From positions 416,001 to 480,000 of the forward strand of contig CBDBLO010000002.1 of assembly GCA_965207075.1 (NCBI GenBank): 64,000 nt of DNA. The letters run 5' to 3'. The stretch is from Nitrosopumilus sp. (GTDB taxonomy: Archaea; Thermoproteota; Nitrososphaeria; Nitrososphaerales; Nitrosopumilaceae). The notes beneath the pieces are model-generated. The model was not told where the DNA came from, searched no databases, and saw only the letters and a program-made list of their open reading frames with translations. Below are positions 6,717-35,004 of the stretch, in pieces. Within the stretch, counting starts at the first letter, position 1, and every line of letters starts with the position of its first letter. The position numbers and the translations under genes were made by a program.

Positions 6717-6734
6717 GAGTACGAACCACAGAAC

Positions 6735-8161: not shown

Positions 8162-8205
8162 CACAGAACATAATAAATAAATAGGGTAAAGTTAATAATC
8201 GTAAT

Positions 8206-8460: not shown

Positions 8461-8612
8461 ACCCCATTCTTATCTTTTTATGACATAATGCAATAACTAT
8501 GTCTTGAGTCGGGGTGGACGTCTTTCTCTTTTTGTAGAATTTTGCATAGTCATTTTAGATCTGCAATAAACTAACCATTGGAACATACGGCCTAGCTTTA
8601 TTTCAGTAATCT

Positions 8613-8789: not shown

Positions 8790-8879
8790 GCCCTCGCTAA
8801 GATATTTCGGTATATTAAGATTTTGTTTAATATTATTAATCATTAGGAAAAACTACATCTATCTTAATAATATCATTGC

Positions 8880-9331: not shown

Positions 9332-9679
9332 TATGTTGGCATGCACGGAACCGGACACTAAAGTTCGAGCTAAAAGCGACTCGCGAAAGGCAGTAGCGGA
9401 CCTAACGAGACTCGGTTTGGATTCGTCACGTGACCAGAGGAACTTGGGTACGACAATGTGGGTGTGGGCGTCACGAAGCCGTTGGTTCTACTACCAAATG
9501 GGTCAAACGTACAATTTTTGTCACAGGCCGACCAACGTAGATTCGACACAGCTGTTCATTCTTAATTACGTAAATCTATGGGACAAACAGAATCGCCATT
9601 GTAATGTTTATGAATATGATCTGTTGTACATAATAAATATCTAAGAAACAATTTTTAGATGCAATGTTACTTGTAGGCC

Positions 9680-10435
9680 ATGGTGCGTCCAAAGATCACC
9701 AACGCTTTGAAGGGCAGTCTCGGAGAGACGTACTATAAGGAACTGTGTTCCCAGAAAGGTTGGGCATATTGCTCACTCGAAGTTTTGCACAGCTGCAAAG
9801 ATCTCGATTCTGTTGTTTTTAAAACAGGGTTTGAAAGGATACGAATAAGCATTCCTAACTCGATAAGACCGGAAGTGGAAAGGATATCAAAACCATCCAA
9901 CCAGACTGGCCGTGCCCCCAGTTTCGTGTTCGATTACCTCGCATGTAAGATGTGGCAAACAAATACCTCGCAAATACAGCATCCTGGAAGAAACGACTTC
10001 TGTTGGGCCGAAGTGAAGACAGGGTTGGGGATCTTTTCGGATAATCAGCACAAGACGCTGTCCGAGATCCGTCTGCCTATTGCAGTCTTTCACATAGAAA
10101 ATGTTTTGGCCAAGCCACAGTACATCGATATGGATTGGGACATTATGTCTGGAGGGGAGTTTGTAAAGCAATTAACAAGTGTGGACGAACACTACAACTA
10201 TGGAGATACTGACTACAAAGACAGGTATGATAGTAACTATCGTAGCAATACCAAGTCTGATGTGGGTTATGATAGCCATGGCAGATACAAGGATGGTACT
10301 AACAACTCCCGACACTCTAGCGTTGTAGCAAAATATGATGCTAAATGTGGTGTGTGCCACAAGAGGATAAAAGCAGGCACCGATCGAATAACGCAGGATT
10401 ATGTAGGTGATTGGATACACACAAAGTGCGCGTGA
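9680..10435 (+). CDS. Putative PD-(D/E)XK nuclease with C-terminal Zn-binding domain
   Basis: GSLGE...FDYL...AEVKTG motif order; C-terminal CGVC...WIHTKC. Confidence 0.65.
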   Translation: MVRPKITNALKGSLGETYYKELCSQKGWAYCSLEVLHSCKDLDSVVFKTGFERIRISIPNSIRPEVERISKPSNQTGRAPSFVFDYLACKMWQTNTSQIQHPGRNDFCWAEVKTGLGIFSDNQHKTLSEIRLPIAVFHIENVLAKPQYIDMDWDIMSGGEFVKQLTSVDEHYNYGDTDYKDRYDSNYRSNTKSDVGYDSHGRYKDGTNNSRHSSVVAKYDAKCGVCHKRIKAGTDRITQDYVGDWIHTKCA

Positions 10436-10614
10436 GGGATTATCTTACTCGTTACAGCGTGACCGTTTCTGTAACCGGTTGTGGAAATTTCTTAAATGAG
10501 AACGGCTGCATTCGTACACCTTAAGACTAAAGTAGGGACGTACAGCCATGCGGTACAATCCCTCTGACTAAAGGCAAAGCGGTATTACAAAAAGGGTCTA
10601 AACCAGATGTTGGA

Positions 10615-10628
10615 GCGGGCCCAAAGGG
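10615..10628 (-). other. att core (duplicated tRNA-Arg 3' end)
   Basis: 14-bp identity with 34929-34942. Confidence 0.8.
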
Positions 10629-10746
10629 ACGGGAAGGGTTTTGCCGACTATTTCGGGCCCGGGCCTGCGTGGATCGTGCCTGGCCGAGCACTCTTCGGGA
10701 GCAAATGCGCGGGCCGTTACACCTTGTACTGACGCGTGGCCCTTGC
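10625..10746. repeat. ~120-bp dispersed repeat, copy 1 (island end)
   Basis: AGGGACG..GGGTTTTGCCGACTATTTC...TTCGGGAGCAAATGCGCGGG...CACCTTGTAC shared with copies 2 and 3. Confidence 0.85.
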
Positions 10747-11046
10747 ACCTGACGCCAGACGCTTTCCAAAATCTTGGTCCAAGTTACCTATCCAGTCTTG
10801 GAATGAAGGCATCGAGCGGCTATCCTTCCATCTTCCGGGACTGGCCGATCCTCGGGATCCGTATAGGGCTGGAAGGTAGCGGAACCTGGATAGAAATGAA
10901 GGAATCAAGTGTTGGACTTGGCCGCCGCCTGAATCATGATAAACCACTTGCTGGTGCTCTGGTGATGCCCGCAACCTAAGCCAGAGTCAGGCCGCCGGAC
11001 AATTCCAGATGGGGACACGCAAAGTTGTGATAGAGACGCAGGCCCG

Positions 11047-11420
11047 CTATGGTGGACGAGTCCTCGCGCTTGAGTCCGCGTACGGCTTTTGCGCGGTGGC
11101 GTAGCGTGTTCTAGTTAAAGGACTCCATTTGGTTGGTGTGATGTATGCCGTCAAAGGCCACCCCGTTGACGCGCCCCGTGTTTTTGTGCAGAAAGTTCTT
11201 GACCCGGCACTGCTCTTTCCAAGCATGCTGGATGTTAGCGGTCTTGTCGGATATGAACGTCTCAGACACCTGCCCGCTATTTTTTTGGCCTGTGTAAACA
11301 TGGGCGCCATGTCGTAGTTGCCCTTGTACTCGGCCACCATCTTTGCGATCCAAAACCGGGTCTCGGTATACCGCATGGCAAACAGGTACTTGTGGTTGCC
11401 CCTGATCTTTAGTACTTGGT
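11047..11420 (-). pseudogene. IS6-family transposase remnant (frameshifted)
   Basis: KYLFAM..ETRFWIA, FISDK and TNQMESFN fragments in different frames. Confidence 0.7.
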
Positions 11421-11492
11421 CAAGTCGTGCACGTTACACTTCGTACTACATCCAGTTCACGCACGGATCCACGCCACACCTGACCAAGTACC

Positions 11493-12083
11493 TTACGTGT
11501 AGCGTGTACGGTGATCCAGGCCGCGTGTACGGTGATCCAGGCCGCGTGTACGGCGCTTTTTCGGATCAGTAAAGGCGCGATAAGGCACCAGGCCCGCGTC
11601 CCTCGGCTGTATCAGTGGATGATACGGGCAACCGTACTTGCTCAGGCCAAAGCACCAGAGATCAACCCCGTTCGCGGCCAACGCGCCTGCCACGCGGGCC
11701 GCCCGATTCTCGGCATCCCCGTGTATTCCCCACGCGGCCACTACGGTGTCTGCCCCGGAGGCATTGTCAACCACTACTGTCAGATTGCGTTCCCACACTT
11801 CGTGTGGCTCCGGCCCCAAGGCCATCAGATCCCGCGGGTCGGTCGCACGGTACGGTGACAGGTTGCAGACTGCCAAGTTGTCATACCCCCAGTCGATCGC
11901 GTATCTGATGCACCGTCGAATGGTAGCGTCATCCGTGGATTCATCTGCTGTGGACGGGTTGAGCATGACGAACATTAGTGTGCGTCCAGAGTCCGAACGT
12001 CGCCCACCACCAAACAGATCCCTTCTGAACAACTCATATCTGTACGACCGATCGTCAGATAGCGTGGCTGACTTTCTTATCAT
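11493..12083 (-). CDS. DUF1643 family protein
   Basis: YRYEL, FVMLNPSTAD...DDATIRRC, NL..YRATDP, AAWG, P.HPL; C-terminal 21-bp duplication. Confidence 0.88.
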   Translation of the reverse strand: MIRKSATLSDDRSYRYELFRRDLFGGGRRSDSGRTLMFVMLNPSTADESTDDATIRRCIRYAIDWGYDNLAVCNLSPYRATDPRDLMALGPEPHEVWERNLTVVVDNASGADTVVAAWGIHGDAENRAARVAGALAANGVDLWCFGLSKYGCPYHPLIQPRDAGLVPYRAFTDPKKRRTRGLDHRTRGLDHRTRYT

Positions 12084-12255
12084 GCGTCAGGCCCTGGCGG
12101 CCAGCTATTATAGCACTTTGCTGGCTCTGCTACAAAAATGGGCTAAACGTTAGGCTGGGTGACGCGGTTGATGGTGTGCAACGGTATGCGGGCAGTGGCC
12201 GTACCGGTGGGTGTTCGGGGCGCGACTGCGCCCAAGGGCCAAAAAGGAGGTCATT

Positions 12256-12828
12256 ATGCCCGTCCTGCCTGTTTCCGCAGGAGAGCCAGATCTCGCACAA
12301 TCTTTAATAGAACACGTGCAAATGAATGATATGACTCAGAATGGCGACATTTGTGACGACGACGCGCCGCAAATAGATTGGGTGCAGGACACCAAAAGAA
12401 TTGTCGCAGGGCTGGAACATGATAGAGTGTTGAGGGGAACGAGGTTCACGTGGGATCGGGAGGCGTTGAGCGTTGGCAGATGGCAGCTTAACTGCCCACC
12501 AGTGCGCAGCACGGGACTCAGCACTGCGGACATGGTTGACTATGCAACGTGCGCACGGATCGAAGTTGCCATGGCACAAGACCTGCTAGTCCGGATTGGC
12601 CGCGGATACAACGACATGCAGACCCGCACCGAATGCATGCTGAGGTTGTGGATGGCTTACAAATGGGTCGAGGCAATCTTGGCGCAAGACCCACCGGGCC
12701 GGATTGGCAGCGAGTGCAACGACATGCAGATCTACACCGAATGCATGCGGAGTTTGCGGATGAACCACAAACGGATCGAGGCAATCATGAGCAGAGTGGG
12801 TGCAGAAACTCCCGTCCAGGTACGGTAA
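12256..12828 (+). CDS. Hypothetical protein with a 36-aa internal duplication
   Basis: AGGAGGT RBS before ATG 12256; RIG...NDMQ..TECM..L.M..K..EAI repeated at a 108-bp offset. Confidence 0.6.
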   Translation: MPVLPVSAGEPDLAQSLIEHVQMNDMTQNGDICDDDAPQIDWVQDTKRIVAGLEHDRVLRGTRFTWDREALSVGRWQLNCPPVRSTGLSTADMVDYATCARIEVAMAQDLLVRIGRGYNDMQTRTECMLRLWMAYKWVEAILAQDPPGRIGSECNDMQIYTECMRSLRMNHKRIEAIMSRVGAETPVQVR

Positions 12829-12966
12829 CAGGTCCAAGCCGCTTGAGTCGTATCCTCCCTGTATGGACAATCCGCTGTGAGATGTCGCGTATGGGCACAG
12901 GGAACACTGCTGTACTGCGCACCGGGCAGGCCGAACCGCTGGAGTCTGGGACTGTAGTGGATCATA

Positions 12967-13090
12967 AGGGACGAAAAGAGTTTTGCCGACTGTTTCGGAT
13001 CCAGAATGTCGCAGAGCGTGCCCATCCGAGGTACTATTCGGGAGCAACTGCGCGGGCAGTTGCACCTTGTACGGACTTGTGACCCCTTGC
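12967..13090. repeat. ~120-bp dispersed repeat, copy 2
   Basis: Aligns with 10625-10746. Confidence 0.85.
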
Positions 13091-13216
13091 CGCAGATGCC
13101 TGAAATTTTCCACAATCCGGGCACAGGCTATCCAATCGGGTCTTGGCTATAGAGGCGTTGAGCTCGTGAAAACATGATTCATGTGTTTCATAAGACATAA
13201 ATAATATAGCTATCCA

Positions 13217-14041
13217 ATGATAGCCATGAGTCAAGCACTCAAGAAGGCCACTCTCATGATGAGAATGCCAAAGGTGATCGATGAGTATGCAGGCTCGGCA
13301 TCAATGCCGCGCACTACTGCATACAATATGCTAATACGGCGCGGTCTTGCAGTGCGACAGATATTCCGTTTCTACTCACAACTCAACATACGGGGGGAGA
13401 AACTAACAGAGTACGGCATGGCATCAATGGACTATGCGGGGTATGTTATGGCCAAGTATGATGAGTATTACAAGGAGAGCAAACACAGCGTCATAAGCAA
13501 GACCATTGCACTTGATGAGAGTACGCTCAGTGTCATACGGCAGTTGACAGAAGAGTTTGACGTGACGGTGCGGCCCACAAACATCGGAATGGCAGGCATG
13601 TGCCTAGGCCTGGGCTTCATACATGACATTGAATTGGCAAATGACATGGACGCCATAGACGACTTGTTCAGTAAAGACGCTGTGCACCTCTCGCGCATGG
13701 CCAGGCGTGTATGGTCCGCCGCGGATTTAAACATACTTGAGAATCTCGGATGGTCTGTCTCTGATTTGGAGCGGCACGTTATACGCGAGTCCGAACTGCT
13801 GGGCATGATCTGCAGTGACGCGGAGTTGATGGAGAAGACCAATGTCGAGATACAGCAGAAGCGCCCAACCGCGCAGGACGTGCAGAACCCGGAACTTTTG
13901 GAGCAGCTCAACGACGAGAAGAACAACGACAAGCGTAGCGCGCTGATAAGGAAACTGCAGAGGCAGTACGCACAGGCTGGCAAAGTGGCGCAGGAGTACG
14001 ATAAGCGTAACTACCTCGGATGGTCAGAGGCGTTGTGGTGA
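13217..14041 (+). CDS. Hypothetical protein, possible tandem ribbon-helix-helix domains
   Basis: Long ORF after an AT-rich promoter; VIDEYA...RTTAYNMLIRRGL and KTIALDESTLSVIRQL patterns. Confidence 0.6.
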   Translation: MIAMSQALKKATLMMRMPKVIDEYAGSASMPRTTAYNMLIRRGLAVRQIFRFYSQLNIRGEKLTEYGMASMDYAGYVMAKYDEYYKESKHSVISKTIALDESTLSVIRQLTEEFDVTVRPTNIGMAGMCLGLGFIHDIELANDMDAIDDLFSKDAVHLSRMARRVWSAADLNILENLGWSVSDLERHVIRESELLGMICSDAELMEKTNVEIQQKRPTAQDVQNPELLEQLNDEKNNDKRSALIRKLQRQYAQAGKVAQEYDKRNYLGWSEALW

Positions 14042-14135
14042 TACTGATGATTAAGAAAGACATGGAAGGCTTAGTTTCGCACGCCCCACCTTGCCACGAA
14101 CACTCTGAGCCCGCAAAAGTAAAAGGAGATTTAAT

Positions 14136-14318
14136 ATGAAATACGAAATGCCTGTTTTTACATTGTTGCCCGGAGAGCAGCAAGCCGTGGACGAGATCGT
14201 GGAAAAGCACAGACGGCTCGGCCACTGTCCGTTCTGCCACAACAAGGACATCGAGGGCCATGCAATCTCAATAGTCTTGGGCCGCAGGCGCGCGTGGGCA
14301 GGAGTACAGTCCACATGA
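14136..14318 (+). CDS. Small Cys/His protein
   Basis: AAGGAG RBS; HCPFCH motif. Confidence 0.45.
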   Translation: MKYEMPVFTLLPGEQQAVDEIVEKHRRLGHCPFCHNKDIEGHAISIVLGRRRAWAGVQST

Positions 14319-14374
14319 GGCGGCGGCAAGAGTTGTAGTTCGGGCCGGTACGGCCGTCAATCGTTCCGGACATA

Positions 14375-14770
14375 ATGTCTGCAGAAGGGGGCACCGCGTA
14401 CCGCAAGTGCGTCGACTCACATGTGGAACTGGAGCGGGGCGGGCGCGCGTGCAAATACTGCAAAACGAGGGGGTGGAAGGCGCACGATCATCGGATAATG
14501 AGGGTGATTGAACTGAGAAGGGAAGGCTGCCGGAAAAAACGGGCCGCGTACGCGGCAGAGCGGGCTGTTGTTGCAACGGAAAGGACACTGCAGCCCGCAA
14601 ACCAGGGGGGGAGAGAGGAGGTCGGGTTCAACATTATCCCAATAGACAGGGACACTATCCACACCACTAACGCGGCGGGAAAGAACCGCAAGACAGGCTG
14701 GTCTGCAGGGACGAGAAGGGTTTTACCGACTATTTCAGACCCAGAACGACACAGATCGTGCCTAGTCTAG
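14375..14770 (+). CDS. Hypothetical basic protein with CxxC; 3' end runs into repeat copy 3
   Basis: RKC..H...CKYC motif. Confidence 0.35.
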   Translation: MSAEGGTAYRKCVDSHVELERGGRACKYCKTRGWKAHDHRIMRVIELRREGCRKKRAAYAAERAVVATERTLQPANQGGREEVGFNIIPIDRDTIHTTNAAGKNRKTGWSAGTRRVLPTISDPERHRSCLV

Positions 14771-14828
14771 GATTATTCGGGAGCAAATGCGCGGGTTATT
14801 GCACCTAGTACGACTTGCGGCCTCTTGT
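14707..14828. repeat. ~120-bp dispersed repeat, copy 3 (cut by an IS630 end)
   Basis: Aligns with copies 1 and 2. Confidence 0.85.
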
Positions 14829-14871
14829 GCCGTTGCGTGTGAAGCGAAATTTTCAATGATCGTCACTCTAG
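14823..14871 (+). mobile_element. Isolated IS630 right end
   Basis: Reverse complement nearly identical to 27607-27655. Confidence 0.85.
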
Positions 14872-14892
14872 ATCGACTCATGGGTTTGTAAT

Positions 14893-15552
14893 CTATCTCG
14901 TATATGCTTCCAGCCCAGTCTTTGTTGGAGTCCAGTTCTTTGGCTCAAATTTGCTTGGAAGTCTTGAAACCAGCCGGTCTGATTCTAACCCAATGTACAC
15001 CAGTCGCTCTATGATTGCATGTACTTCGCGTCCGGATACGTTTTGGAGCGGCCAGTTTGTAATTTCACTTTCTTTGTCTGTCGTATGACCATAGCGGTCT
15101 ACAAACCATTCAAGTGGTGTCCTGCCGTTGACGTGATATTCACAGATTGGTAATCTATTATATATGATTATATCATCAATTATCAGGACATGATGATTCT
15201 GACTGCTTGTGATATTTTTGGATGAGTCTTTTTTCTGATGGCCCCATCTTATGTTACGCGGCGAATTGGGAATGTTGTTTACGGGCATGCCTAAATCATG
15301 CCGCTTGCAGGTTTCCCATGACAAGTGAAGATCCGCCAACTCTTTGCCTATCTTTGAGAATGCCCAAAAGTCGGGTGCCATTGGAATGTGTGGAAGTTCC
15401 CGGGTGAGATTGTTTGCATACTTCTCTCGATATCCAGAATGGTGTAAGAGTCCATAGACGTAATAGAAAATATCTTCTTTAGTGACAGTATTGTCATTGT
15501 AATGTGTTCTATATTCTTCAAGAGCATAATCTGTAATGTTGTCTACCATCAT
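14893..15552 (-). CDS. Type ISP-like C-terminal specificity domain (separate ORF; frame stays open upstream to the AG tract)
   Basis: DNITD.AL, KEDIFYYVYGLLH..YR.KY.NNL..ELP.IP, G..LA.LH, Y.VNGRTPLEW..DRY motifs; ATG overlaps the TGA of the hidden frame. Confidence 0.85.
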   Translation of the reverse strand: MMVDNITDYALEEYRTHYNDNTVTKEDIFYYVYGLLHHSGYREKYANNLTRELPHIPMAPDFWAFSKIGKELADLHLSWETCKRHDLGMPVNNIPNSPRNIRWGHQKKDSSKNITSSQNHHVLIIDDIIIYNRLPICEYHVNGRTPLEWFVDRYGHTTDKESEITNWPLQNVSGREVHAIIERLVYIGLESDRLVSRLPSKFEPKNWTPTKTGLEAYTR

Positions 15553-15658
15553 TCTTTCATCACTTTCATCGGGAATACTTGACCGTGATGGACTACTTCC
15601 AAGTCTGGTATCGTGTCGGTTATGAATACCGAAAACTTGCCCTGTATCTTGTATGGTA

Positions 15659-18130
<2,472 letters not shown>

Positions 18131-18186
18131 TTTATCTCCATGCTGTACAGTATCCTCGGCTTTCCAATCTCCCGAGTGTACCGGTA

Positions 18187-19445
18187 AGCGCTGTCCAGTT
18201 CGGAATTTTCTGCCTCAGATTTGTGCACATTTTGATGCGCTCGGGCATGAGAAGATGCCAGAATTGTCGCCGATCTAGGGAGTTGGTACGGGAAGGATCC
18301 AGATTTTGTGCCGTAGCCGGTGGTTTGTGCGCAGCGTCCGCTGGGGGTTGTGACCCTCCTTTCGGGCGGGAGGGTCTAGGCGACTAGGTTGTAGCAGATG
18401 CATTTGAGTACGAGCCGCAGCTTCCGCATGGCAAGCGTCTTTGCGCGCGCGACCGCGCCGAACCTCTCCTTGATGACGGAGAATGCGGTCTCGACTAGGC
18501 TGCGCCGGTGGTATGCCCTGCCGAACCCCTCCGGGTCGTCGCGGTGCCACTTGAGCATTGTACCCATGGCATGGTAGCCGTTGGGCCGGGAGTTCTTCTT
18601 GGGGCATATCACGGGATCGCGCCCGCTGCGCGCGATCGCGTCACAGTTTGCCTTGGCAAGGTATGCCGCGTCCAGGATGACATGGCCGCCGCCCCGCGGT
18701 ACGCGTCTGTGCATCTCCCTGAACACGGGCGAATCATGCGCGCGGCCCGCGGTCACCTCGCACGTGACTATCATCCCGTGCGGCGCCATCAGTATGTGCA
18801 GCTTGCTGAATTCGCGTCTGGATATGATCCCTTTCTTGGCGTCCTCCCAGTCCTCGTACCTCATGATGGAGAACCCCGACGAGTCTCCCAGGAGCGTCCC
18901 GCGTGCGTGTTCCGCCGCCTGGGCGCCCAGCAGTCCGACCACGGCGTCGATCATGCCCGCGAGTCCCTTTGCCCAGTCATGTAGCCCGGACTTTGATGGA
19001 ACTTTTTTTAAGCCGTACATGTTTACCGAACCTGAGTGTTCGTTCATGTACACAACATGGATCCTGTACGAGTGGTTGCGGAAGGTCATGTCCACGAGGC
19101 ATACGATCCTTGCAGCATCGTGCTCGTCGGCATCGTGGAGGGCGCCGCGGATCAGTTTCCGTAAAGATTTGATCCGGGCCCCCTTCACCCTGCCTTCTTC
19201 CCTGCGCTTCCTCTCGTACTCCTTGTAGTCGCGGCACTCCCTGATGCTCTTCTTCCTGCACTCCTTCCTGTACGCCCTGACGTGCTCGTCATGCCTCAGC
19301 TTGTCGCCCTTCCTGCTCTTCCTTCGTCTTCTTCTGGAACTCATTGGCGGTAGCCGCTATATGTGATCAATAAGCTTTTCCATCCGAGTCAGTTCTGATC
19401 TTTAAGCTTTTTGTCGTTTTTGCGCTGCCGGATCTGGACAGCGCC
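18187..19445 (-). mobile_element. IS5-like insertion sequence (~1.26 kb) in the 3' end of the helicase gene
   Basis: TIR GCGCTGTCCAG at both ends; 9-bp target duplication GTACCGGTA at 18178-18186 and 19446-19454. Confidence 0.92.
18376..19344 (-). CDS. DDE transposase (IS5/IS4 superfamily)
   Basis: GDSSGF, KLH, HDSP, LDAAY, YHRRSLVETAFSVIKERFG. Confidence 0.92.
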   Translation of the reverse strand: MSSRRRRRKSRKGDKLRHDEHVRAYRKECRKKSIRECRDYKEYERKRREEGRVKGARIKSLRKLIRGALHDADEHDAARIVCLVDMTFRNHSYRIHVVYMNEHSGSVNMYGLKKVPSKSGLHDWAKGLAGMIDAVVGLLGAQAAEHARGTLLGDSSGFSIMRYEDWEDAKKGIISRREFSKLHILMAPHGMIVTCEVTAGRAHDSPVFREMHRRVPRGGGHVILDAAYLAKANCDAIARSGRDPVICPKKNSRPNGYHAMGTMLKWHRDDPEGFGRAYHRRSLVETAFSVIKERFGAVARAKTLAMRKLRLVLKCICYNLVA

Positions 19446-22400
19446 GTACCGGTATTCTTCTTTTAGTATTACTTCCAACTCACCTAGAATTTGTGCGTCG
19501 TTTAGATTGTCGGAGTTTATTCTCTTTCGGAGGTTGTGCAGCGCCGTGTATGGTTGCTTGTTTCTCACCATCATCCTTCCCATGCGGGGCAGGAGCAGCT
19601 TGGCGCGTCGGCCCAGTTCTACGTCTTCTGCAATCCTGTTCAATCTCTTCTCGAAATACGTCTGCAGTTTTGTGGTACGTATGCGCGCCTGCTCATTCTT
19701 CATATCTCGGGTAAATTTTACCCACGCATCGCGTATGAATCCATCGTGTTGTGGGCCCTCTGCCTCTTTGGCAATTCCGACCTTTGTCTCTCCAAGCTTG
19801 GCGAGAAACGACGATGCGACCATTTTTTGTACATTGTCGCCTGACACCATATAGTATCGACGTAACGTCTTGGTGTCTATGACCCCACCGTTGAGTAGTA
19901 GCAGCTCGTCGGCCTCGCAAGCTACAAGCATCCTACCATCCCCGACGGAGCTCTTTATTCCAAGCGGCAGGCTGGTTATCCTGCGTCGGAGTGCCTCGTC
20001 GTTTTGTATGGCCTCGGCGTCCAGCTCTGCCGTAGTTTGTACCATGTCCAAGATGCCTTCTGAATCCATGTCCAGGACGTCTTCCACTCCAGCGTATATG
20101 TCGATTACCGCATCCTCATCTATCTTCTCAGATGGTTCTAGAATAGTCTGGTCGTGTCCGATAATTCGTCGTATAGTGCTTATCTTGCTGGCGACTCGCT
20201 CCCTTAAGCCTAGGCGGCTTTCGACTTGTGTGGTGGGCAGAAAGTTCACAATGTCGACCGTTTCGTGCTTGGAGCCTATTCGGTCTATCCTTCCAACTCT
20301 CTGTATGAGCCGTACTGGGTTCCAGTGGAAGTCATAGTTTATCACAGTGCGGCCTGCCTGTAGGTTTACGCCCTCGGAAAGGACATCTGTGCTCACCAGT
20401 ATGTTGAGTTCTTCTTCCGGTGCAAACTGGGCATTGTTGTTTTCGGGATCAAATCTACCCACCATCTCCCTTTTTTCGGCAGACGACTTGTGGGAGTCTA
20501 TCTGGCCTATGCGGATGTCGGGTATGGCCTCCTTTATGCGCCCGTAAAGATATTCTGCGGTCACGCGCGACTCGGTAAATAGGAGTATCTTTTCATCCTT
20601 GACTCGTATTACCTCCAGCAGGGAATCGAACTTGTCATCGAACTTGTGATAGTCTGCCATCGCAGGCAGGTAGTTGAGTATTTTTCCAAACTCGCCTATG
20701 TCGTGTACCAGATCGGCGCGCCATCTTGCTACGTCAAACGCGTCAATGCTGTAATCCGACTCTCCGAGCTTCTCAAGGTCGTACTCGTCATCATCATACA
20801 TGATGCTCTTGTATATGGCGTCTTGGTAGTCCTTTCCTATCGGGACTATGCCCTTTTTCAAAAGGTCTAGGAACTCTTGTGATCCCTTCTGGTAGTTTGT
20901 AGCACTTGCTGCAAACGCCGCTATGCTGGACTCCATTCTCTTCAAGAGTCCGCATCTTACCATCCCGATGAGGGACTTCATGCGGTTTGCGAGATCATTG
21001 TATTTTTTGTATTCGGGATGCGTGGTATTCTGGTACTCTTCTTTGATATAGTCTCCGGGAGAGTACCTGGCCATGGTCAGGTTTTCAATATGGCCCAGCA
21101 TGGCCTCAAAGGAGCTTAGATACACCTTATCTATGTCGTACTGACGCGGGGTGGTCAAGTTCCTTTCTGGAAAGTATCTGCGCTCTCCGCTTTCCAGTTC
21201 AAGATAGTGCCTCTTGCCGTCGCGCTTTGCGTACTTTTCACGAATCTGCCTTCTAGTGCGGCGAATCAGTATGTGGCGCAGCAGCTCCCGTATCCTTTCC
21301 TCGCCCTCTTCGGTAAGACGGTGATCCTGCTCTGACCCCTTGAAGTATTCGTCGAGCGAGGTGTTACCAAGTGGGGGTATGTCCCGGATTCTTTCTGCAG
21401 GAAAGAGGTTCAACTGGTTCTTTAGGTCCGTTACGCCGTTTGAGATTGGGGTTGCGGTAAGCATGATGATGGCCGAGTCGTCACTTTGCTGTTCCATGAA
21501 CGCGTGCAGTGCGTCGTATGCATGCGTCTTGTTTCTAAAGTTGTGGCTCTCGTCCACCAGTATGACGTCACAGTTGGTGTAACGGCTCAGTATGTTGTCG
21601 TCCATTCCTATCTTGTACCTGGAGACTACCTCTGCGTATATGTCAAAGAGGCGCATGTATTCCCTCCACATGTCAATCAGATGGGGGGGACATATGATGA
21701 GGGGCTTGGCCCGCTTTGTCTCCTTGAGATACTTTAGTATCATGCTGCCAATGTACGACTTGCCGGTTCCCACCACATCCGCCACTATCACACCACCGTA
21801 CTCTTCGAGCATCTTGACGGACTTTAGGACCGCCATCCTTTGGAATTCAAAGAGATGTCTTGCCTCGACGCCGCCTATTACGTCATCCGGCAGACTACCA
21901 TACTCGTGCATCACCGCCTTGCGGTATATGTCGATGGGGCGCCTGTCATTGACCCACGAGTCCCGCATCTCGCTGGCCATCTCCTCGGTGAATTCTTTGG
22001 CCTCTTCCCAGTGTCGCTCAAACCACTCCAACAGTTTCTCTGTATCGTTGTCCACATTGGTTCGCAGATTGAGTTCCGTATGTTCCCTTATTCCGGATAT
22101 TGAGAGGTTGCTGGATCCTACTATGGAGAATCGTGGCAGGGCAGGATTGTCCATCTCAAATATGTACGCCTTGGCGTGAAGTTGTACCTTTGTGTAGACT
22201 CGGACCTGCAGTTTGCCGCGTCGCATCAGATCTGCCAGCTTTAGCACTGCACGTCGATCCTGCTCAGTCTGTGGCATGTGTCCAAGGGAATCACGTACTT
22301 GCTTGGAAACTGTCGTCTGTCCACCAACGTCGTCTGTTGCAACTTTTCGCTTTACATCGTCAAACGACTCGTTGTTTGCAAGCAGTGCTTCCGCGGTAGG

Positions 22401-22694
22401 ACGGTTCGTCTTTGGTGATATGAGAAGACGTATGACATGATCTGGATTGTCACTCTTCTCGATCTTTGCAAAGTAGTCCATTATGGCGGCAAATCCTGAT
22501 ATGAAAAAGTACCCCACTGCTATGCTGGCCCGTGTCGTATTTGGAAGGTGGAGTTTTAGTTGATCTAGGAGCACGACGTTTTCGTTGTCTATGACGCTCT
22601 CGTTTGACAATGCTATGTGTCTATGCTGTGGGTTTATCTGTTTTTTGAACGTGTAAAACACAGCCTGTTCACTATGGTTCGTGGCAGAAGTCAT
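19389..22694 (-). CDS. PLD-nuclease plus SF2 (SNF2-like) helicase; last 18 aa are IS-derived
   Basis: LHAKAY...GSSNLS (PLD); ADVVGTGKS, DESH, LTATP, STDVLSEGVNLQ, QRVGRIDR. Confidence 0.92.
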   Translation of the reverse strand: MTSATNHSEQAVFYTFKKQINPQHRHIALSNESVIDNENVVLLDQLKLHLPNTTRASIAVGYFFISGFAAIMDYFAKIEKSDNPDHVIRLLISPKTNRPTAEALLANNESFDDVKRKVATDDVGGQTTVSKQVRDSLGHMPQTEQDRRAVLKLADLMRRGKLQVRVYTKVQLHAKAYIFEMDNPALPRFSIVGSSNLSISGIREHTELNLRTNVDNDTEKLLEWFERHWEEAKEFTEEMASEMRDSWVNDRRPIDIYRKAVMHEYGSLPDDVIGGVEARHLFEFQRMAVLKSVKMLEEYGGVIVADVVGTGKSYIGSMILKYLKETKRAKPLIICPPHLIDMWREYMRLFDIYAEVVSRYKIGMDDNILSRYTNCDVILVDESHNFRNKTHAYDALHAFMEQQSDDSAIIMLTATPISNGVTDLKNQLNLFPAERIRDIPPLGNTSLDEYFKGSEQDHRLTEEGEERIRELLRHILIRRTRRQIREKYAKRDGKRHYLELESGERRYFPERNLTTPRQYDIDKVYLSSFEAMLGHIENLTMARYSPGDYIKEEYQNTTHPEYKKYNDLANRMKSLIGMVRCGLLKRMESSIAAFAASATNYQKGSQEFLDLLKKGIVPIGKDYQDAIYKSIMYDDDEYDLEKLGESDYSIDAFDVARWRADLVHDIGEFGKILNYLPAMADYHKFDDKFDSLLEVIRVKDEKILLFTESRVTAEYLYGRIKEAIPDIRIGQIDSHKSSAEKREMVGRFDPENNNAQFAPEEELNILVSTDVLSEGVNLQAGRTVINYDFHWNPVRLIQRVGRIDRIGSKHETVDIVNFLPTTQVESRLGLRERVASKISTIRRIIGHDQTILEPSEKIDEDAVIDIYAGVEDVLDMDSEGILDMVQTTAELDAEAIQNDEALRRRITSLPLGIKSSVGDGRMLVACEADELLLLNGGVIDTKTLRRYYMVSGDNVQKMVASSFLAKLGETKVGIAKEAEGPQHDGFIRDAWVKFTRDMKNEQARIRTTKLQTYFEKRLNRIAEDVELGRRAKLLLPRMGRMMVRNKQPYTALHNLRKRINSDNLNDAQILGELEVILKEEYRYGAVQIRQRKNDKKLKDQN

Positions 22695-22888
22695 GATGCT
22701 AAATTTGAACCAGCATGTTTTTCTATGCGATGTGCATGACGTTTTTATGGATGTACTGAACTTGTCTACGGGAAAGAAAGATCTAGATTATGGCAGCGCT
22801 CACTCGCGAGTTTACTGCTTTCCAGGATCTGGAAAGACAGACCATGAGTAGTAGGATGGACTACTGATCAAAAACGGAGAAGTGTACA

Positions 22889-25108
22889 ATGATTAGTAAA
22901 AACCAAGCCAAACAAATCGTTGATGATTTACGACAGCAGCGCAAGCTTCAGACTGATGAAATTTTAAAACATCTCGAAAAAGCACATATAGCAAAATCAA
23001 GTGATGTACTTAAAATTATTGATGCAATGTTGAGCTATGGCGATTATTTTATTTACTTTATTGTTAACAATCTTTCTGTTTATTCAGCTCCGAATAATCA
23101 ATTTGTTCGTATTATAAGAAAACTGTCAAAATTAAAACAATTTGAAAATGGGATCTATAATTTACGAACATTGTATAGACGTGATCCAAAATCTGCCGAC
23201 TTTATCTATGAAAAACTACAAAAAATAGATGAGTATGAGATAGCACTGGTCACAGGATCTGTTCTTGGTGGAAAGGGGCAAATTAATCCCGACTTTTTAT
23301 GGAAGGTTATTGATAACAACACGAAACCTACAATAAATGATAAGATTTCTTACACACGTGCGATTGAAATTGTAGCTCAAGAAAATAGTGTGCCCGGCAG
23401 ATTCGTGGATCAGCTTGTTTCGTATATGGATGATGATAATATAAACCTCAGGCGGCATGTAGTTCAAACTTTAATTATTCGATTTAACAACCTAAAAAAG
23501 ATTGAAAAATTTATTATCTCTATTATAAAACAAAATGACGCTAACAAGAGACTTGTCCTGGGCTATCTTTTCCCCGTTACAAACAAACCTGAGAAATTCT
23601 GTCTTAAGATTCTCCAATCGTGTGCCAACACCGATGACAATCAGATCATTGGGATGGTGGCATTCAACTTCGCCTATCTAGCACCAGACCATCCAATTGA
23701 ATCCTTGAGGATATTAAGACGATGGTGTAAAAAACAAGGATTCTTTATGGGACATTCTGAATATATGGCCTCTCAAATGGGAACGAAAAACATCCACAAG
23801 ATATCAACACTGTTACTTGCGTGGATAAGGACAGAAAAGAATGGTATCACACTCCAGTTTCATCTACCTGCTATAATTCGTGAGGCATATCGTGATAACG
23901 ACCCAGAGTTAATGAACTTAATTTTAAAAATTGACTATACTCAGAAGAAAAAGGCAATTCTTATTATCAAAATCGTTGAAACCGTACTTTCACAAGGTTT
24001 CCATCAAGTAGTGCGAAGTGACAGCTTTCTTGCCACTTGTAATAGAATTCTGCATAAGATTGCTGAACATCAGAATCTTGAAATATGTATAGATCGCAGT
24101 TTGAAAAATCCTGTAATACAAACACTTGATCTAGTTGATAAAGTCAGATTTGGCCAAAAGAAAAAGAACCCCGATGAAATAAAAAACAATCTAGAATACT
24201 TCCCAACCATTATGCAGTTTTTTGGCCGACGCAAGCTTCATAAATTGATAGAAAACAAACCGTGTCACCCATTTGTCCAAATTCTGACACGATCTCGGGT
24301 TTCAAAAACATTGGTAAAAAAAATTTTGCGCAGAATAAACAATCGAAAAACGTCTTGGGAGAAGGCCATGATGCTTCATGCACTTCAATCAAAGTTTTTT
24401 CCTACATCATTATTGAGTGACATGGAATTCTCTCTTTCTTTGCTAGGTAAAGACGAGCGAGGAGTTGTGCGGCTACGTAGTGGACTGTTGAATGAAAGTG
24501 ATTTCTTTCCAACTCTGGCTGAACTGAATGTGTATGCACGGTTCAAGAAAAAATATCCAACAAAACTACAACCTCCTGTAGGTAATAACGAACTAGATGT
24601 GGAAGTTACAATTGATGGAGTTGTCTATCTGTTCGAAGTCTTTGCTCCCAAAAATAACGTTGAGGTGGAGTATGTGCGAGCTGCACACACAGTAGATAAC
24701 AAAGCTAAGAAACGTATTATTGAAAAATTAGAAAGACAGATAAAAAATGCAGCCGGCTCCACTCATCCTGTACTTTTGATCATAGATAAAAGCATGGCTC
24801 ACACCGTTGATTATGATAATATAATTGATTCTCTCTATGGGACGTATCAATATACGATAGAAATGAACAAACAGAGCGGAGCAATAGAAAATGAATACAG
24901 TTCTAGAAAAAGTGATTCCATTTCAGATGTATCTCTCTACGGAAAAATAATAAGTGCAATAATTCTTCTACACAGAGACATGAGCTACGACGATTACAGC
25001 ATGATACTTTCAGGACAACTTTTCCCAAATCCTAATGCTACAATTCCTTTAAGCCAGACTTCAATACAAAAAATTACAAATGTATTATTTAAAAAAATAA
25101 CTGTCTAG
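22889..25108 (+). CDS. Large low-GC protein: helical-repeat N-terminus plus putative PD-(D/E)XK-like C-terminus
   Basis: 739-aa AT-rich ORF; HEAT-like LVSYMDDDNINLRRHVVQTL; LAEL...ELDVEV...LFEV motif. Confidence 0.7.
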   Translation: MISKNQAKQIVDDLRQQRKLQTDEILKHLEKAHIAKSSDVLKIIDAMLSYGDYFIYFIVNNLSVYSAPNNQFVRIIRKLSKLKQFENGIYNLRTLYRRDPKSADFIYEKLQKIDEYEIALVTGSVLGGKGQINPDFLWKVIDNNTKPTINDKISYTRAIEIVAQENSVPGRFVDQLVSYMDDDNINLRRHVVQTLIIRFNNLKKIEKFIISIIKQNDANKRLVLGYLFPVTNKPEKFCLKILQSCANTDDNQIIGMVAFNFAYLAPDHPIESLRILRRWCKKQGFFMGHSEYMASQMGTKNIHKISTLLLAWIRTEKNGITLQFHLPAIIREAYRDNDPELMNLILKIDYTQKKKAILIIKIVETVLSQGFHQVVRSDSFLATCNRILHKIAEHQNLEICIDRSLKNPVIQTLDLVDKVRFGQKKKNPDEIKNNLEYFPTIMQFFGRRKLHKLIENKPCHPFVQILTRSRVSKTLVKKILRRINNRKTSWEKAMMLHALQSKFFPTSLLSDMEFSLSLLGKDERGVVRLRSGLLNESDFFPTLAELNVYARFKKKYPTKLQPPVGNNELDVEVTIDGVVYLFEVFAPKNNVEVEYVRAAHTVDNKAKKRIIEKLERQIKNAAGSTHPVLLIIDKSMAHTVDYDNIIDSLYGTYQYTIEMNKQSGAIENEYSSRKSDSISDVSLYGKIISAIILLHRDMSYDDYSMILSGQLFPNPNATIPLSQTSIQKITNVLFKKITV

Positions 25109-25144
25109 TCACTTAAAAACAAAAAACAAACTACATACGAAAGT

Positions 25145-25345
25145 AATATCCAGATCCGTATGTGCTATACATTCCATACCTGTGTGACTTAAAACCATAA
25201 TCCAACTCAGAGCGAATTTTGGATGCAATATATCATCTTCTGTATCCATGCCTGGTCTTCGATGGTCCTGTGCTCTGTCTCATCCTCACCTCTTAATCGC
25301 TCCAATACGTACATGACTTGGTTTTTCAATATTGATACATAGTCT
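25145..25345 (-). pseudogene. Possible SocA/Panacea-like antitoxin remnant
   Basis: WIQKMIY and, after a frameshift, LDYGFKSHRYGMYS resemble the QKL.Y...YGPYS pattern. Confidence 0.3.
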
Positions 25346-25724
25346 ATCCACTACATGCTTTTGTTAACCCCCGCATGCTGTCAGATGTTATATTCGACTC
25401 ATCTATCAGACTGTTCTGATGCGCACATGCTGTCAAATCCCGCGCGACAGGGTCTGACAGGTAGTTACCTCCTGCCCCCGGCTTGGGCACAAATTCCACT
25501 ACCCGTCCATGTGAAGTCTGAGGAGATGTGTTTATCATCCTGCTCGCGTCCCCGACACGCTAAGGGGGATTATCATGTATACACGAGTGTTGTCGATTTT
25601 TGAAGCTCAAGTCGCCCATAACACATCTACGACACCACAGTCAAACAATTTCTCAGCGCGCTCACAGGATTGCTTGCGTAGCACAGGAGCTAACTAGAAA
25701 TACTGAGCATCGTACACGAATCGC

Positions 25725-27080
25725 ATGAAAGAGGGAGTGGTTAGAATTCATGCCGAAAACTTCAAGAGCCTGAAGGACTTTACAATCGACTTTAAAAAGT
25801 TTAATGTGCTGATTGGAACCAACGGTTCTGGAAAAACCAACGTGCTTGAGCTGTTTAAGTTTGCTAATCTATGTATCAATCCAGACCGAATTCCCACATA
25901 TCCATTTAGATCATGGTCAGGATTCAAAAATATTGTATGGTCTGGTGACCCGAACCAAGTGATTCGTCTCCAAGTTAGTCACTCAATAGAAAAGTATGAC
26001 TTTGATTACAAGGTAACTATTGGCGATTCAGGGGGCACTCCTGAATTTTTGGATGAGGAATTAAACATTTCAAATTATTTACGTGTTTTGCGTAACGCTC
26101 AATCTCTCAAATACGAGCTTGATTCCAAGTTCTTGGACACGATAAAACCTATGCTATCCGCAACCCCACTCGTTAGTGACTTCGTGGATGATTTACCAGA
26201 GTCACCCTGGATCGAGGAAATAGATAATTTTATCACAATTCCAAATATAATTCGAGCATTACATGTCCGTCCCATAGAAATATATGCGCGATCAAGAAGA
26301 TCAATGTCACGCTCATCACCACATGACTCCAATTCGTCGAGTTATGATATTGATGATGTCGGATTCGCAATGGAGTATTTTGAAAGTATAGGTAAGCGAC
26401 TTTTGATTCCGTCCGTTAGGATTGGTGGTGACGACAACAAAGACTTTATCCACGAGCACGCCACTAGTTTCTTGGCGGGACGACATTCCATGATTCTACT
26501 GCGACAGTTAAACTATACGGCCATCCGAGAGTCGCGGTCAGTCGAAGATTCCGATGAATTGGGGGAAGACGGTGTTGGACTAATTGGCAAGCTGTTCCGC
26601 TGGTATAATAGAAACAATCAACTACCTGAGCGTTTTACTTTTGCGCTTGAAAACCTATTTCCTGGCTGGCAGATCAATTTTGATGTAACTGGAGATGGGC
26701 GGATATTGCTAAACGTATATGATGGCAACATGGCTTTGTCCCCATCATCAATTCCAGACGGCTTTTACAAACTACTTGCAATACTCGCAGCCGTGGAAAT
26801 AGGACCAAAATTCTTGCTAATAGACGAAGTAGATACGTCCCTGCATGCGGAAATTATCGACTACGTTCTCAGTGAGCTTCGTACTTGTGAATCACATGTA
26901 ATTATTACCACGCATTCTCCACTGGTAATAGATGCAGTTAAACTTGCAGACGTTGTAATTCTTAAAAGAACTAAATCCGGTACCACGTGTCAAAGGATTG
27001 AAAATACTGATAGCATGCAAAAAGAATTGCGCGATCAAGGACTTACGCTAAGCGAAAGCTGGATATATGGTGGATCATGA
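25725..27080 (+). CDS. ABC-type (AAA_21-like) ATPase
   Basis: ENFKSL, GTNGSGKTN Walker A, PDG signature, LLIDEVDTSLH Walker B, ITTHSP. Confidence 0.9.
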   Translation: MKEGVVRIHAENFKSLKDFTIDFKKFNVLIGTNGSGKTNVLELFKFANLCINPDRIPTYPFRSWSGFKNIVWSGDPNQVIRLQVSHSIEKYDFDYKVTIGDSGGTPEFLDEELNISNYLRVLRNAQSLKYELDSKFLDTIKPMLSATPLVSDFVDDLPESPWIEEIDNFITIPNIIRALHVRPIEIYARSRRSMSRSSPHDSNSSSYDIDDVGFAMEYFESIGKRLLIPSVRIGGDDNKDFIHEHATSFLAGRHSMILLRQLNYTAIRESRSVEDSDELGEDGVGLIGKLFRWYNRNNQLPERFTFALENLFPGWQINFDVTGDGRILLNVYDGNMALSPSSIPDGFYKLLAILAAVEIGPKFLLIDEVDTSLHAEIIDYVLSELRTCESHVIITTHSPLVIDAVKLADVVILKRTKSGTTCQRIENTDSMQKELRDQGLTLSESWIYGGS

Positions 27081-27559
27081 AGTATTATTTTATTGTGGAA
27101 GATGATTTTGGTCCACAGTTTATCAAAGCGCTATTTAGAAAAAAGTCAGATGAAGGTATATTTTCTGGTATGTTGGTTAAAGCAAAACAATATTCGATCG
27201 GTCCCAAAATGTCGCGAATAGCTAAAGCTGCAACGCGTAACGCTGATCGTATAGTCATCTTAATGGATGCAGACGGCAAGCCTCATAAGGAATGGACTCG
27301 TCATATAGAATCATTTCTTTCTGATGTTGATATGAATTATGTTCGTATTGTGCTGTTGGATCATGAGATAGAAGAATGGATTTGCCATTCACAGGGGATT
27401 AAGTTTGATGAAAAACCTTCCAAGATCTTGAAAGCCAGCATATCATACAAAAAAAATCAACTTCCAAAGTATGCTTTAAAACTAGACTGTGAAAAATTAA
27501 AAACCTGTTCTAGTTTCGAGCGTCTGATGCTTGCACTTAGATCCGACGATCGTATATAG
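27077..27559 (+). CDS. Putative TOPRIM-like partner (DUF4276-like)
   Basis: ATGA overlap with the ATPase; IVEDD, LMDAD, EIEEW, C.SF motifs. Confidence 0.7.
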   Translation: MKYYFIVEDDFGPQFIKALFRKKSDEGIFSGMLVKAKQYSIGPKMSRIAKAATRNADRIVILMDADGKPHKEWTRHIESFLSDVDMNYVRIVLLDHEIEEWICHSQGIKFDEKPSKILKASISYKKNQLPKYALKLDCEKLKTCSSFERLMLALRSDDRI

Positions 27560-33676: not shown

Positions 33677-34885
33677 TCACTGTTTGCCAAACCTGCTTGA
33701 GACGTCCAGTATCTGCTGGATCTTCTCTATCTCGAGCTTCATGTCCTCCAGCTCCCTGTTCTTGATCTCGAGCTCGGTCTTTTCTCTCTCCAGCTGTCGC
33801 TTCTCAAGCCTCACGCGCTCCGTGTCTGACACAGTCAGGAAGGGTATGGCCTTTTCATACTCTGAGAACCTCTCAAAGTCCTCCTCGTTGTACCTCTCAT
33901 AGTGTTTCTCCATCCCCGTGGTGTGCCCCATCATGTCCTCCTTGTCCAGGTAGTTGACCTTGGCGCGCCTCATCATGGTGTTAAAGTACTTTCTAAACCC
34001 GTGGTCGAGCTTGACCTCGTACCGCCTCGTCCCCTCCTTCATCTGGTCGCGGAGGCCTATCTTTGTTACGATCTTGTTGACTCTGGCCTTGATCCCCTTC
34101 TGGTGGAACCGCCTCGGCACGTCAAACCTGGCCGACGCGAGGAGCGGGTCGTCGTCTTTCGGATGGCGCAGAAACCTCGAGCGCCACTCCTTTTTGTACA
34201 GCTCGAGGACCTTGCAGGCCTCCGGCGTGAGAAACGTCCAGTACTCTTCCGGATCCCCGCGGTACACCCTCAGGGCCGCACCTCTGTATTCCACGTCGCC
34301 GTCGGAGGCGGCAGATCCGGACGAAGCGGTGGGAAGCATGACAACGTCCTTCCAGCAAAAGTAGTCCCAGGCCTCCAGCCTGAACCCGCCCGAGGAGAAC
34401 ATCAAAATGATGAGTCTGTCAGTTATGTCCGTACAGTGTACCAGCATCCCCTGGATCTCCTCCCTGGTATATGCGCGGTCCTCGCTCTTTGTCTCCCGCG
34501 GGTACATCTTGTTTATCAGCCCCCACGAGACATCGACCTCGTTTGAGACGAGCAGCGCCTTTATCGGCTTTATCCTGTTCGGGACGGTATTGGCACTGAG
34601 TAGGCCCTGCTCCACCTCCTTGTTGGTCTCCCTCACGTACGACTTGATTATGGACTTGGCGGCGCCAATGTCGTTTCTGGCAAGGTGCACGAACGCGTCG
34701 GCAAGGTGCTCCACGCCGCGCGATTCCGGGGCCGCGCCCGAGCACTTTGTGAATATGCGGTCCGGGATCAGGCTCAGGAACTTTCTGAGGTTCCGCGTAT
34801 AGCCGCGCCTGGTCTCGCTGCCCCGGATCGACCCGAGAAAGTTCGCATAGGCGTCGTTCTCCATTACATCCAGTTCTATGTTCAC
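33677..34885 (-). CDS. Tyrosine recombinase/integrase
   Basis: SSGGFR (Arg), HGFRKYF (HxxR), MMGH, HY catalytic Tyr; adjacent to the tRNA. Confidence 0.93.
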   Translation of the reverse strand: MNIELDVMENDAYANFLGSIRGSETRRGYTRNLRKFLSLIPDRIFTKCSGAAPESRGVEHLADAFVHLARNDIGAAKSIIKSYVRETNKEVEQGLLSANTVPNRIKPIKALLVSNEVDVSWGLINKMYPRETKSEDRAYTREEIQGMLVHCTDITDRLIILMFSSGGFRLEAWDYFCWKDVVMLPTASSGSAASDGDVEYRGAALRVYRGDPEEYWTFLTPEACKVLELYKKEWRSRFLRHPKDDDPLLASARFDVPRRFHQKGIKARVNKIVTKIGLRDQMKEGTRRYEVKLDHGFRKYFNTMMRRAKVNYLDKEDMMGHTTGMEKHYERYNEEDFERFSEYEKAIPFLTVSDTERVRLEKRQLEREKTELEIKNRELEDMKLEIEKIQQILDVSSRFGKQ

Positions 34886-34929
34886 GCTTCTATTAAGGGG
34901 TTGGGCCTATTTGAGTCACTAAAACGAGG

Positions 34930-35004
34930 CGGGCCCAAAGGGCTTCGATCCCTTGACCATTGGATTAGAAGTCCAACACTCTATCCATGCTGAGCTATGG
35001 GCCC
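34930..35004 (-). tRNA. tRNA-Arg (TCT)
   Basis: GGGCCCA/TGGGCCC acceptor stem; anticodon arm TTGGA-CTTCTAA-TCCAA; T-arm AAGGG-ATCGAAG-CCCTT. Confidence 0.95.

Follow-up and report, generated by a model that had tools for sequence, protein, structure and literature searches.

Three repeat copies at the distal end of a tRNA-Arg(TCT) island in Nitrosopumilus, each with a box largely complementary to its adjacent core

The tRNA-Arg(TCT) island and its repeat copies

We examined a 24.3-kb island (10615-34942) inserted in a transfer RNA (tRNA) gene, tRNA-Arg(TCT), of a Nitrosopumilaceae-type archaeon, and a sequence that occurs three times at the distal end of this island. The island lies in a stretch of 64,000 nucleotides from Nitrosopumilus sp. 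(assembly GCA_965207075.1, contig CBDBLO010000002.1, positions 416,001 to 480,000 of the forward strand), hereafter the window, in which all positions are counted. The window contains no other tRNA gene. The 3' end of tRNA-Arg(TCT) (34929-34942) is identical at 14/14 positions to the core of an attachment (att) site at 10615-10628, and ~7e-4 chance 14-bp matches of this kind are expected in the window. A first-pass annotation, made by a model from the letters of the sequence, had placed the first repeat copy at a perfect att core, and the match bears this out. As in thaumarchaeal integrated elements, a tyrosine integrase is encoded at one end, and a direct repeat of the tRNA 3' end lies at both borders. 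The main features are as follows, where Z denotes a core and Y and X denote boxes in the arm beside it.

34928..35004, minus strand: tRNA-Arg(TCT) gene, with the attL core at 34929-34942
33677..34885, minus strand: tyrosine integrase of 402 aa, adjoining the tRNA gene; Nitrosopumilaceae family, XerA/Cre-like two-domain fold with a C-terminal helix in the model
34901..34907, minus strand: box Y', a second inverted core copy of 7 nt in the attL arm beside the integrase start; such a copy occurs in 1.5% of random 60-nt stretches
10615..10628, minus strand: attR core, box Z1, at the distal island end; 14 bp equal to the tRNA-Arg(TCT) 3' end
10625..10815, minus strand: repeat copy 1, element-side arm of attR, ~190 bp
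10652..10661, minus strand: box Y1, inverted copy of Z1; 9 Watson-Crick pairs and 1 G-T pair of 10
10735..10742, minus strand: box X1, in core sense and complementary to Y1; weaker signal
12957..12970, minus strand: core Z2; 9/14 to tRNA-Arg, 10/14 to tRNA-Val(CAC) by hand
12967..13163, minus strand: repeat copy 2, ~190 bp; box Y2 at 12994-13003, box X2 at 13078-13085
14697..14710, minus strand: core Z3; 9/14 to tRNA-Arg, 11/14 to the Nitrosotenuis tRNA-Lys(CTT) att site by hand
14707..14827, minus strand: repeat copy 3, truncated; box Y3 at 14734-14743, box X3 at 14816-14823

The integrase has 607 relatives, of which the named ones are site-specific integrases of Nitrosopumilus and Nitrosarchaeum. 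The domain PF00589 is present in 77/88 aligned members of the family, a phrog_1 match was also obtained, and R169, H295, R298, H321 and Y329/Y332 are invariant. The integrase of the window is itself too distant even for a direct PF00589 match; an archaeal XerA model was the only one to match it, far below the cut-off, and the lack of a match to the additional domain specific to IntI therefore carries little weight. A structural model built from the 88-sequence alignment reached a predicted local distance difference test (pLDDT) score of 81.5, the single-sequence fold (pLDDT 39) being unusable. Its closest structures were XerA (Z 17.1 and 15.8), followed by the integron structure 2a3v (Z 14.7), tied with Cre. 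The model aligns from residue ~10 onto residues 74-86 of the lambda and Tn1549 integrases, and the predicted protein therefore lacks the N-terminal arm-binding domain of those enzymes. A split integrase of the SSV type was discarded, stop codons being present by eye between the core and the integrase start. The T-loop of tRNA-Arg(TCT), at 34943-34949, reads ATCGAAG on the coding strand, where the usual tRNA form is TTCGAAT.

The repeat copies start at 10625, 12967 and 14707 in one orientation (self-blastn E-values 3e-22, 1e-21 and 6e-18), with pairwise identities of 95/122, 94/120 and 98/121 (78-81%). These positions and the orientation had been given correctly in the first-pass annotation; its length of ~120 bp did not stand, as homology between copies 1 and 2 continues to ~190 bp (p=0.002 for the extension). 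Copy 3 is truncated at ~14823 by the 51-bp right end of an insertion sequence (IS). The start-to-start intervals of 2342 and 1740 bp agree with the module sizes of ~2.3 and ~1.7 kb noted before. The only 14-bp tRNA duplicate in the window holds the start of copy 1, which lies on the island side of this distal core; copy 1 is therefore, judged by position, the inner, element-derived arm of attR.

No fourth copy was found in the window, either with an nhmmer profile or with a covariance model run with filters off, and searches of phages and plasmids with the repeat gave no match. A genome-collection scan with a 28-position degenerate pattern returned 7 matches, all bacterial and none homologous beyond the seed; this pattern required exact matches and is estimated to catch only ~15% of equally diverged copies, so that the scan does not show absence. 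Homology of the flanks beyond the cores, to one another or to the attL arm, was not significant (p 0.15-0.92). The repeat was also considered as a coding remnant, which was rejected: its variable columns fall evenly over the codon positions (24, 23 and 19), and the open reading frames (ORFs) across it had no relatives in one search and only themselves in the other. The far end of the homology between copies 1 and 2 (10803-10817) loosely resembles a tRNA T-arm (~10/13 by eye, gapped), which we judged not significant.

A box in the arm that follows the adjacent core

A pairing signal between arm and core emerged once the cores were entered into the three-copy alignment. Each arm carries a 10-nt box Y that is the reverse complement of its own core Z, with a 26-nt loop between the two. 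In the Y:Z helix 26/30 cells are paired, the Watson-Crick pairs of Y with the adjacent core numbering 9, 8 and 7 of 10, and 4/10 pairs are compensatory. Y spans the complement of the acceptor 3' strand plus the discriminator of the target tRNA. Slid registers, used as controls, were 20-53% paired. The Y:Z register was the best of 106, with 21/27 pairs as compared with 14 for the runner-up, and 0/5000 sets of column-shuffled arms reached 21 pairs at any register. Under a null that keeps the Y consensus and resamples the real variation patterns, a count of 21 pairs has P=4e-4, and four compensatory pairs have P=0.0018. If the shared CCCT is left aside, nine positions remain in each of cores 2 and 3, and 13/18 of these bases are complementary to the Y of the same copy (P=3.5e-5 against random cores and 0.005 against a decayed Arg core). 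Single-sequence folds form most of the Y:Z pairs, with probabilities of ~1.0, 0.5-0.6 and 0.3-0.8. When counted module by module, Y makes 8 and 9 Watson-Crick pairs with the adjacent core, as compared with 5 and 5 for the core at which the module starts. Across the three copies, Y changes when Z changes, at the level of pairing potential.

The covarying pairing is that of the arm with the core itself, and not that of the helices named in the first-pass annotation. Of these, CGGAT/ATCCG in copy 2 and AGAC/GTCT in copy 3 are one column out of register and pair in only 10/15 cells; the three named helices hold 1 compensatory pair, and their covariation is not above that of shuffles, 397/500 of which score as high. 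We also abandoned the body of the repeat as a stable structured RNA. All six single-strand folds were ordinary in comparison with shuffles (z -0.54 to +1.71), both consensus folds had energies no better than shuffles (p 0.53-0.86), and nulls often reach the 4 compensatory pairs counted over the whole consensus fold (P 0.21-0.38). Rfam gave only the tRNA at gathering score, and a relaxed search gave one weak match outside the repeat (E 0.66). Thus, of the suggestion that the repeat is a structured element marking element ends, the marking of ends, the tie to an att core and a pairing signal were retained, and the stable fold of the body was not.

A second helix, X:Y, has 21/21 cells paired and 3 compensatory pairs (reached in 0, 1 and 1 of 250 nulls). 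One of these three pairs uses position 14823, the first base of the IS end; with two compensatory pairs the nulls reach the value in 21, 15 and 15 of 250, and the helix does not appear in single folds. Because one pair rests on this possible IS base, X:Y is kept as a lead only.

Targets of the internal cores, nesting and the enclosed modules

Cores 2 and 3 are each 9/14 identical to the tRNA-Arg core, as counted in the first-pass annotation; four of the nine matching bases (AGGG), however, belong to the repeat itself, and elsewhere the identity is 5/10 and 5/10. The cores diverge faster than the arms (10/20 vs ~78%, p=0.005). In hand comparisons, Y3 (GGGTCTG) complemented the acceptor strand of Nitrosotenuis tRNA-Lys(CTT) without a mismatch (PMC6563490 Table S2), and the core predicted from Y1 was identical over 12 nt to the att site of N. 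devanaterra at tRNA-Arg(TCT). These comparisons suggest that cores 2 and 3 look like other targets and not like decay, core 3 being probably that of tRNA-Lys(CTT).

Because the Arg type is shared by Y1, Z1 and Y', the outermost arm can be assigned with the integrase end to one frame element. The array is a composite tRNA island, of a known kind, and its three copies are very probably nested attR ends of related elements, copies 2 and 3 being most likely the right ends of sister elements nested in the island. The repeat would be the element-side arm of the right att site in integrative elements that target tRNA genes and form a family in ammonia-oxidising archaea; the working end of the island is copy 1, with its perfect core. 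Two nested insertions may have placed sister elements, aimed at different targets, inside the resident element, and the integrase ends of these nested elements may later have been deleted in the IS-rich island, leaving modules A and B as stranded older pieces. Two such insertions followed by the deletion of the integrase ends would explain the order of the copies. The island end contains an att-bounded segment without an integrase, as in a cis-mobilizable element (CIME); the pattern of tandem accretion is not seen, the internal cores matching at 9/14 and the distal core at 14/14. The modules and the remaining contents of the island are listed below.

10816..12956, strand not assigned: module A, with a transposase remnant, a DUF1643 gene and an orphan gene
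~11000-11440, minus strand: frameshifted transposase remnant of module A
11493-12083, minus strand: DUF1643 gene of module A (PF07799, E 8e-35)
~12328-12828, plus strand: orphan gene of module A, with an internal 108-bp duplication
13164..14696, plus strand: module B, with a 271-aa orphan and small Cys-rich ORFs
13226-14041: 271-aa orphan of module B, for which two relatives were found (96% and 61% identical)
14136-14318 and 14375-14770: small Cys-rich ORFs of module B
14823..14873, plus strand: IS right end of 51 bp fused to copy 3, from the IS at 27607-28714
14893..27559, strand not assigned: defence-like island cargo, in five gene groups

The DUF1643 gene had been recognised in the first module before, and its domain match agrees. 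A ribbon-helix-helix-like label for 13226-14041 found no support in the domain libraries, the only hint being a weak Atlas match to a NikA-like cluster at 0.83. From their translations, we take the transposase remnant of module A to be IS6-like and the IS at 27607-28714 to be IS630-like. The latter is frameshifted and has two partial copies in the same orientation, one on each side of attR: a 450-bp left-end copy outside the island (8880-9331, 85%) and the 51-bp right-end copy inside it (14823-14873, 96%). The five cargo groups are a frameshifted Type ISP/IIG restriction-modification gene, a PLD-SNF2 helicase (PADLOC HKD+Snf2), a DDE_Tnp_1 transposase, a low-GC orphan of 739 aa, and an AAA ATPase with a DUF4276/mad4-like partner. 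At 30135-30251 lies the remnant of another Type ISP C-terminal region, inverted relative to 14931-15051 and 72% identical to it, which fits a merger of related elements.

Several other repeats and genes were observed in the window. Inside the island, a 36-bp near-palindrome followed by three 43-bp tandem repeats lies at 29824-29992, and an IS3-type element (rve, HTH_21, HTH_Tnp_1) lies between identical copies of a 33-bp tandem array (30714-30841 and 32086-32222); a related 33-bp array (~70%, inverted) lies near the integrase at 33160-33430. Outside attR, 5735-10614 holds island-like debris, namely a Fic gene, a DDE_Tnp_1 transposase, the IS half and a 251-aa orphan, with a GC content of 52% as compared with 61-63% in its flanks and no bounding tRNA 3'-end fragment of at least 9 nt. 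Three long ORFs at 48436-56384 consist of ~40-aa Asp/Cys-rich repeats that appear thrombospondin type 3-like by eye.

Candidate roles of the pairing and comparison with known systems

In attB and attL the core pairs with the 5' strand of the tRNA itself; in attP and attR, Y could replace that strand. Of the roles considered, the likeliest is that the att region would fold so that Y pairs with Z and mimics a tRNA acceptor stem, in a manner resembling CTXphi. An integrase lacking an arm-binding domain would thereby encounter a duplex resembling the acceptor stem in both partners, and Y and Z would have to change together for the target to change. Given nested attR ends, it is an even bet that the pairing acts at the DNA level in recombination, and a DNA-level role overall falls somewhat short of even odds. 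For the whole explanation, in which nested attR arms are combined with a role of Y:Z folding at the att site, we estimate a probability of about 0.42.

A number of results weigh against this explanation. It is drawn from n=3 copies in one genome, the genome-collection scan having returned 7/7 bacterial chance matches and the phage and plasmid searches having been empty. The shuffle control of the covariation tool itself was modest (17/500), and the cognate assignment of Y to Z ranks first among only 6 permutations. For Y3, pairing with Z2 (7+1) is as good as with Z3 (7+1), and when DNA energies were compared after swapping, arm 3 favoured core 1 (-3.7 vs -3.1 for its own core). Copies 2 and 3 have weak hairpins (p 0.05-0.54 vs shuffles). 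Each of the four compensatory pairs changes by a transition on both sides, and transitions are abundant in the alignment. The tRNAs were assigned by hand from sites of other genera, with no null model, and the fit of core 2 to tRNA-Val(CAC) reaches only 10/14. The left arms and integrase remnants of the nested elements were not found in the island: no left-arm copy follows the internal cores, and tblastn with 121 sequences gave no integrase remnant, the best match (E 0.019) lying within the helicase gene. In a reconstructed attP, continuation of the Y:Z stem into the other arm was attractive in one fold but proved not significant (p 0.2-1.0) and was dropped.

Studies of the mv4 integrase indicate that tRNA-3'-end integrases can have degenerate core sites and can be retargeted via the overlap alone (bioRxiv 10.1101/2023.11.06.565760), and classical explanations therefore stay viable. 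It is unlikely that the copies are nested attR ends in which X, Y, Z and Y' serve, without any folding, as duplex binding boxes for the core-binding domain of the integrase, with covariation arising from the different tRNA 3' ends that sister integrases recognise. The Arg core is indeed surrounded by four boxes of a single motif, Y' beside the integrase start included; extra core-type sites could fill the role of the arm-binding domain missing from the model, and the whole repeat folds no better than shuffles. Nevertheless, the specificity would have to shift at 3-4/7 positions while the arms remain ~80% identical, and X has an inserted base relative to the core, as would be more natural in a bulged helix than in a site bound by protein. 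Furthermore, of the 8 non-Watson-Crick cells in X:Y and Y:Z together, 4 are G-T on the minus strand and 0 are A-C.

These wobble pairs favour the strand on which the tRNA and the integrase are transcribed, as would be expected if the helix formed in RNA. A transcript running from arm to core might fold like a tRNA acceptor and terminate, or be cut by tRNA-processing enzymes; the hairpin would insulate the host or control the integrase message from the excised circle, and Y would follow Z only because the target tRNA fixes Z. The stretch with which Y pairs is exactly the acceptor 3' strand and the discriminator, the core is followed by a run of T in the attL arm, and X would offer Y an alternative partner. 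We consider this quite unlikely, as Rfam gave no match to the repeat at gathering score or in the relaxed search, no conserved TATA-like box was seen by eye in the arm alignment, and the fold has no T-stem.

It is rather improbable that the locus reflects ordinary accretion and decay, in which elements entered at the same core or at chance secondary cores and the complementarity is neutral, arising from quasi-palindrome template switching or as a coincidence of transition bias. Arrays of integrated elements with decayed internal att sites are common (PMC6563490, PMC5704250, bioRxiv 10.1101/2020.12.28.424599), there are three copies, and every compensation is a transition. A neutral signal would leave nothing more than an ordinary composite island. 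However, both the faster divergence of the cores than of the arms (p=0.005) and the decayed-core null (P=0.005) speak against decay, and tandem accretion at one tRNA should best preserve the tRNA-proximal junction, whereas the perfect core here is distal.

At the other extreme, it would be a long shot that this integrase family picks its tRNA target by base-pairing of the arm box, as folded DNA or as transcript, with the acceptor 3' strand. If this were true, sister elements would move between tRNA genes, and the integrase could be retargeted and might thus be reprogrammable, through a change of ~10 nt and not of the protein, and the stacked ends would record retargeted elements landing in one another.

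The first-pass annotation had also raised integron-like accretion, in which the integrase adds or excises module-plus-repeat cassettes singly at the island end. The repeat does stand at one end of each module with the crossover at its tip, the modules are short (2.3 and 1.7 kb), and a hairpin including the crossover region is attC-like. In a circular cassette, the inverse core matches the start of the cassette itself. Here Y fits the adjacent core and not the core at which its module starts, and circular cassettes of the integron type are therefore excluded. The repeat body contains no RYYYAAC/GTTRRRY pair, the modules hold several genes, encoded on both strands, together with IS debris, and the integrase lies 19 kb away, so that this suggestion is very improbable. 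Equally improbable is a small non-autonomous mobile unit, either a miniature inverted-repeat transposable element or an IS110-type non-coding end, inserting at tRNA-like sequences that match an internal box: its ~190 bp and two internal segments matching the flank in opposite senses loosely recall bridge-RNA guides, but inspection of the ends of copies 1 and 2 showed neither terminal inverted repeats nor a target duplication, the three copies share one island and one orientation and have no counterpart elsewhere in the window, X and Y cover the same target bases where bridge-RNA guides cover opposite core sides, and no IS110 domain was found in the ORFs scanned (54 + 19, overlapping sets, of 257 ORFs of at least 80 aa).

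With its tyrosine integrase, short att site at a tRNA 3' end, size of ~20 kb and restriction-modification cargo, the island resembles the thaumarchaeal cryptic integrated elements (PMC6563490). Thaumarchaeal att sites are uncommonly short (median 17 bp), Table S2 gives tRNA-Arg(TCT) as a target three times with att sites of 12-13 bp, and tandem and piggy-back insertions have been reported (Krupovic et al. 2019, PMC6563490). In contrast to our locus, the att site in the available part of that account is a shared direct repeat only, with no description of a ~190-bp conserved arm, of an internal stack of arms with different cores or of an arm-core inverted repeat. Internal att junctions and older pieces without integrase are shared with tandem accretion and CIMEs (Guedon et al. 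2017, PMC5704250) and with tycheposons (bioRxiv 10.1101/2020.12.28.424599); those junctions, however, repeat one target, with the newest element beside the target gene, whereas here the perfect core is distal and the internal cores resemble other targets.

As in the attC/IntI system of integrons, archaeal integrons included (bioRxiv 10.1101/2022.02.06.479319), repeats part the modules and the outer stem of the hairpin includes the crossover. Unlike integrons, the island has no attC motifs in its repeat body and no adjacent intI/attI, co-oriented cassettes of single genes are absent, and it is the neighbouring core that the complementarity follows. The IS110 bridge RNA is likewise an element-borne non-coding segment that covaries with its target (PMC11208158), but it belongs to a different recombinase family, carries its guides on opposite core sides and acts in trans as RNA. 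Its anatomy does not match as a model for this locus, and neither does that of the strand-biased integrative elements (PMC10214605).

An arm-core inverted repeat that tracks the target was not described in the literature searched, which leaves out most subscription journals. Homologous loci are needed before this feature can carry much weight. According to a review of archaeal tyrosine recombinases, the sequence shared by attB and attP is insufficient for recombination, and how a 14-nt att site works without a stem-loop is an open question (PMC8371274, section 17). An arm box mirroring the target is a testable answer to it and a route by which relatives might switch tRNA targets, and it may hint that such elements recognise tRNA-gene targets partly via folded DNA. 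The closest parallel for such folding is CTXphi, a single-stranded phage that uses the host XerCD at dif, with ~90 bp between boxes that pair to form the recombination substrate (PMC3089051). Our island shows pairing potential only, and it has its own integrase, a tRNA 3'-end target, a 26-nt loop and no known single-stranded stage. What it shares with CTXphi attP(+) is two inverted att-like boxes that are able to pair, with variants that follow the target site (PMC3089051, Table II).

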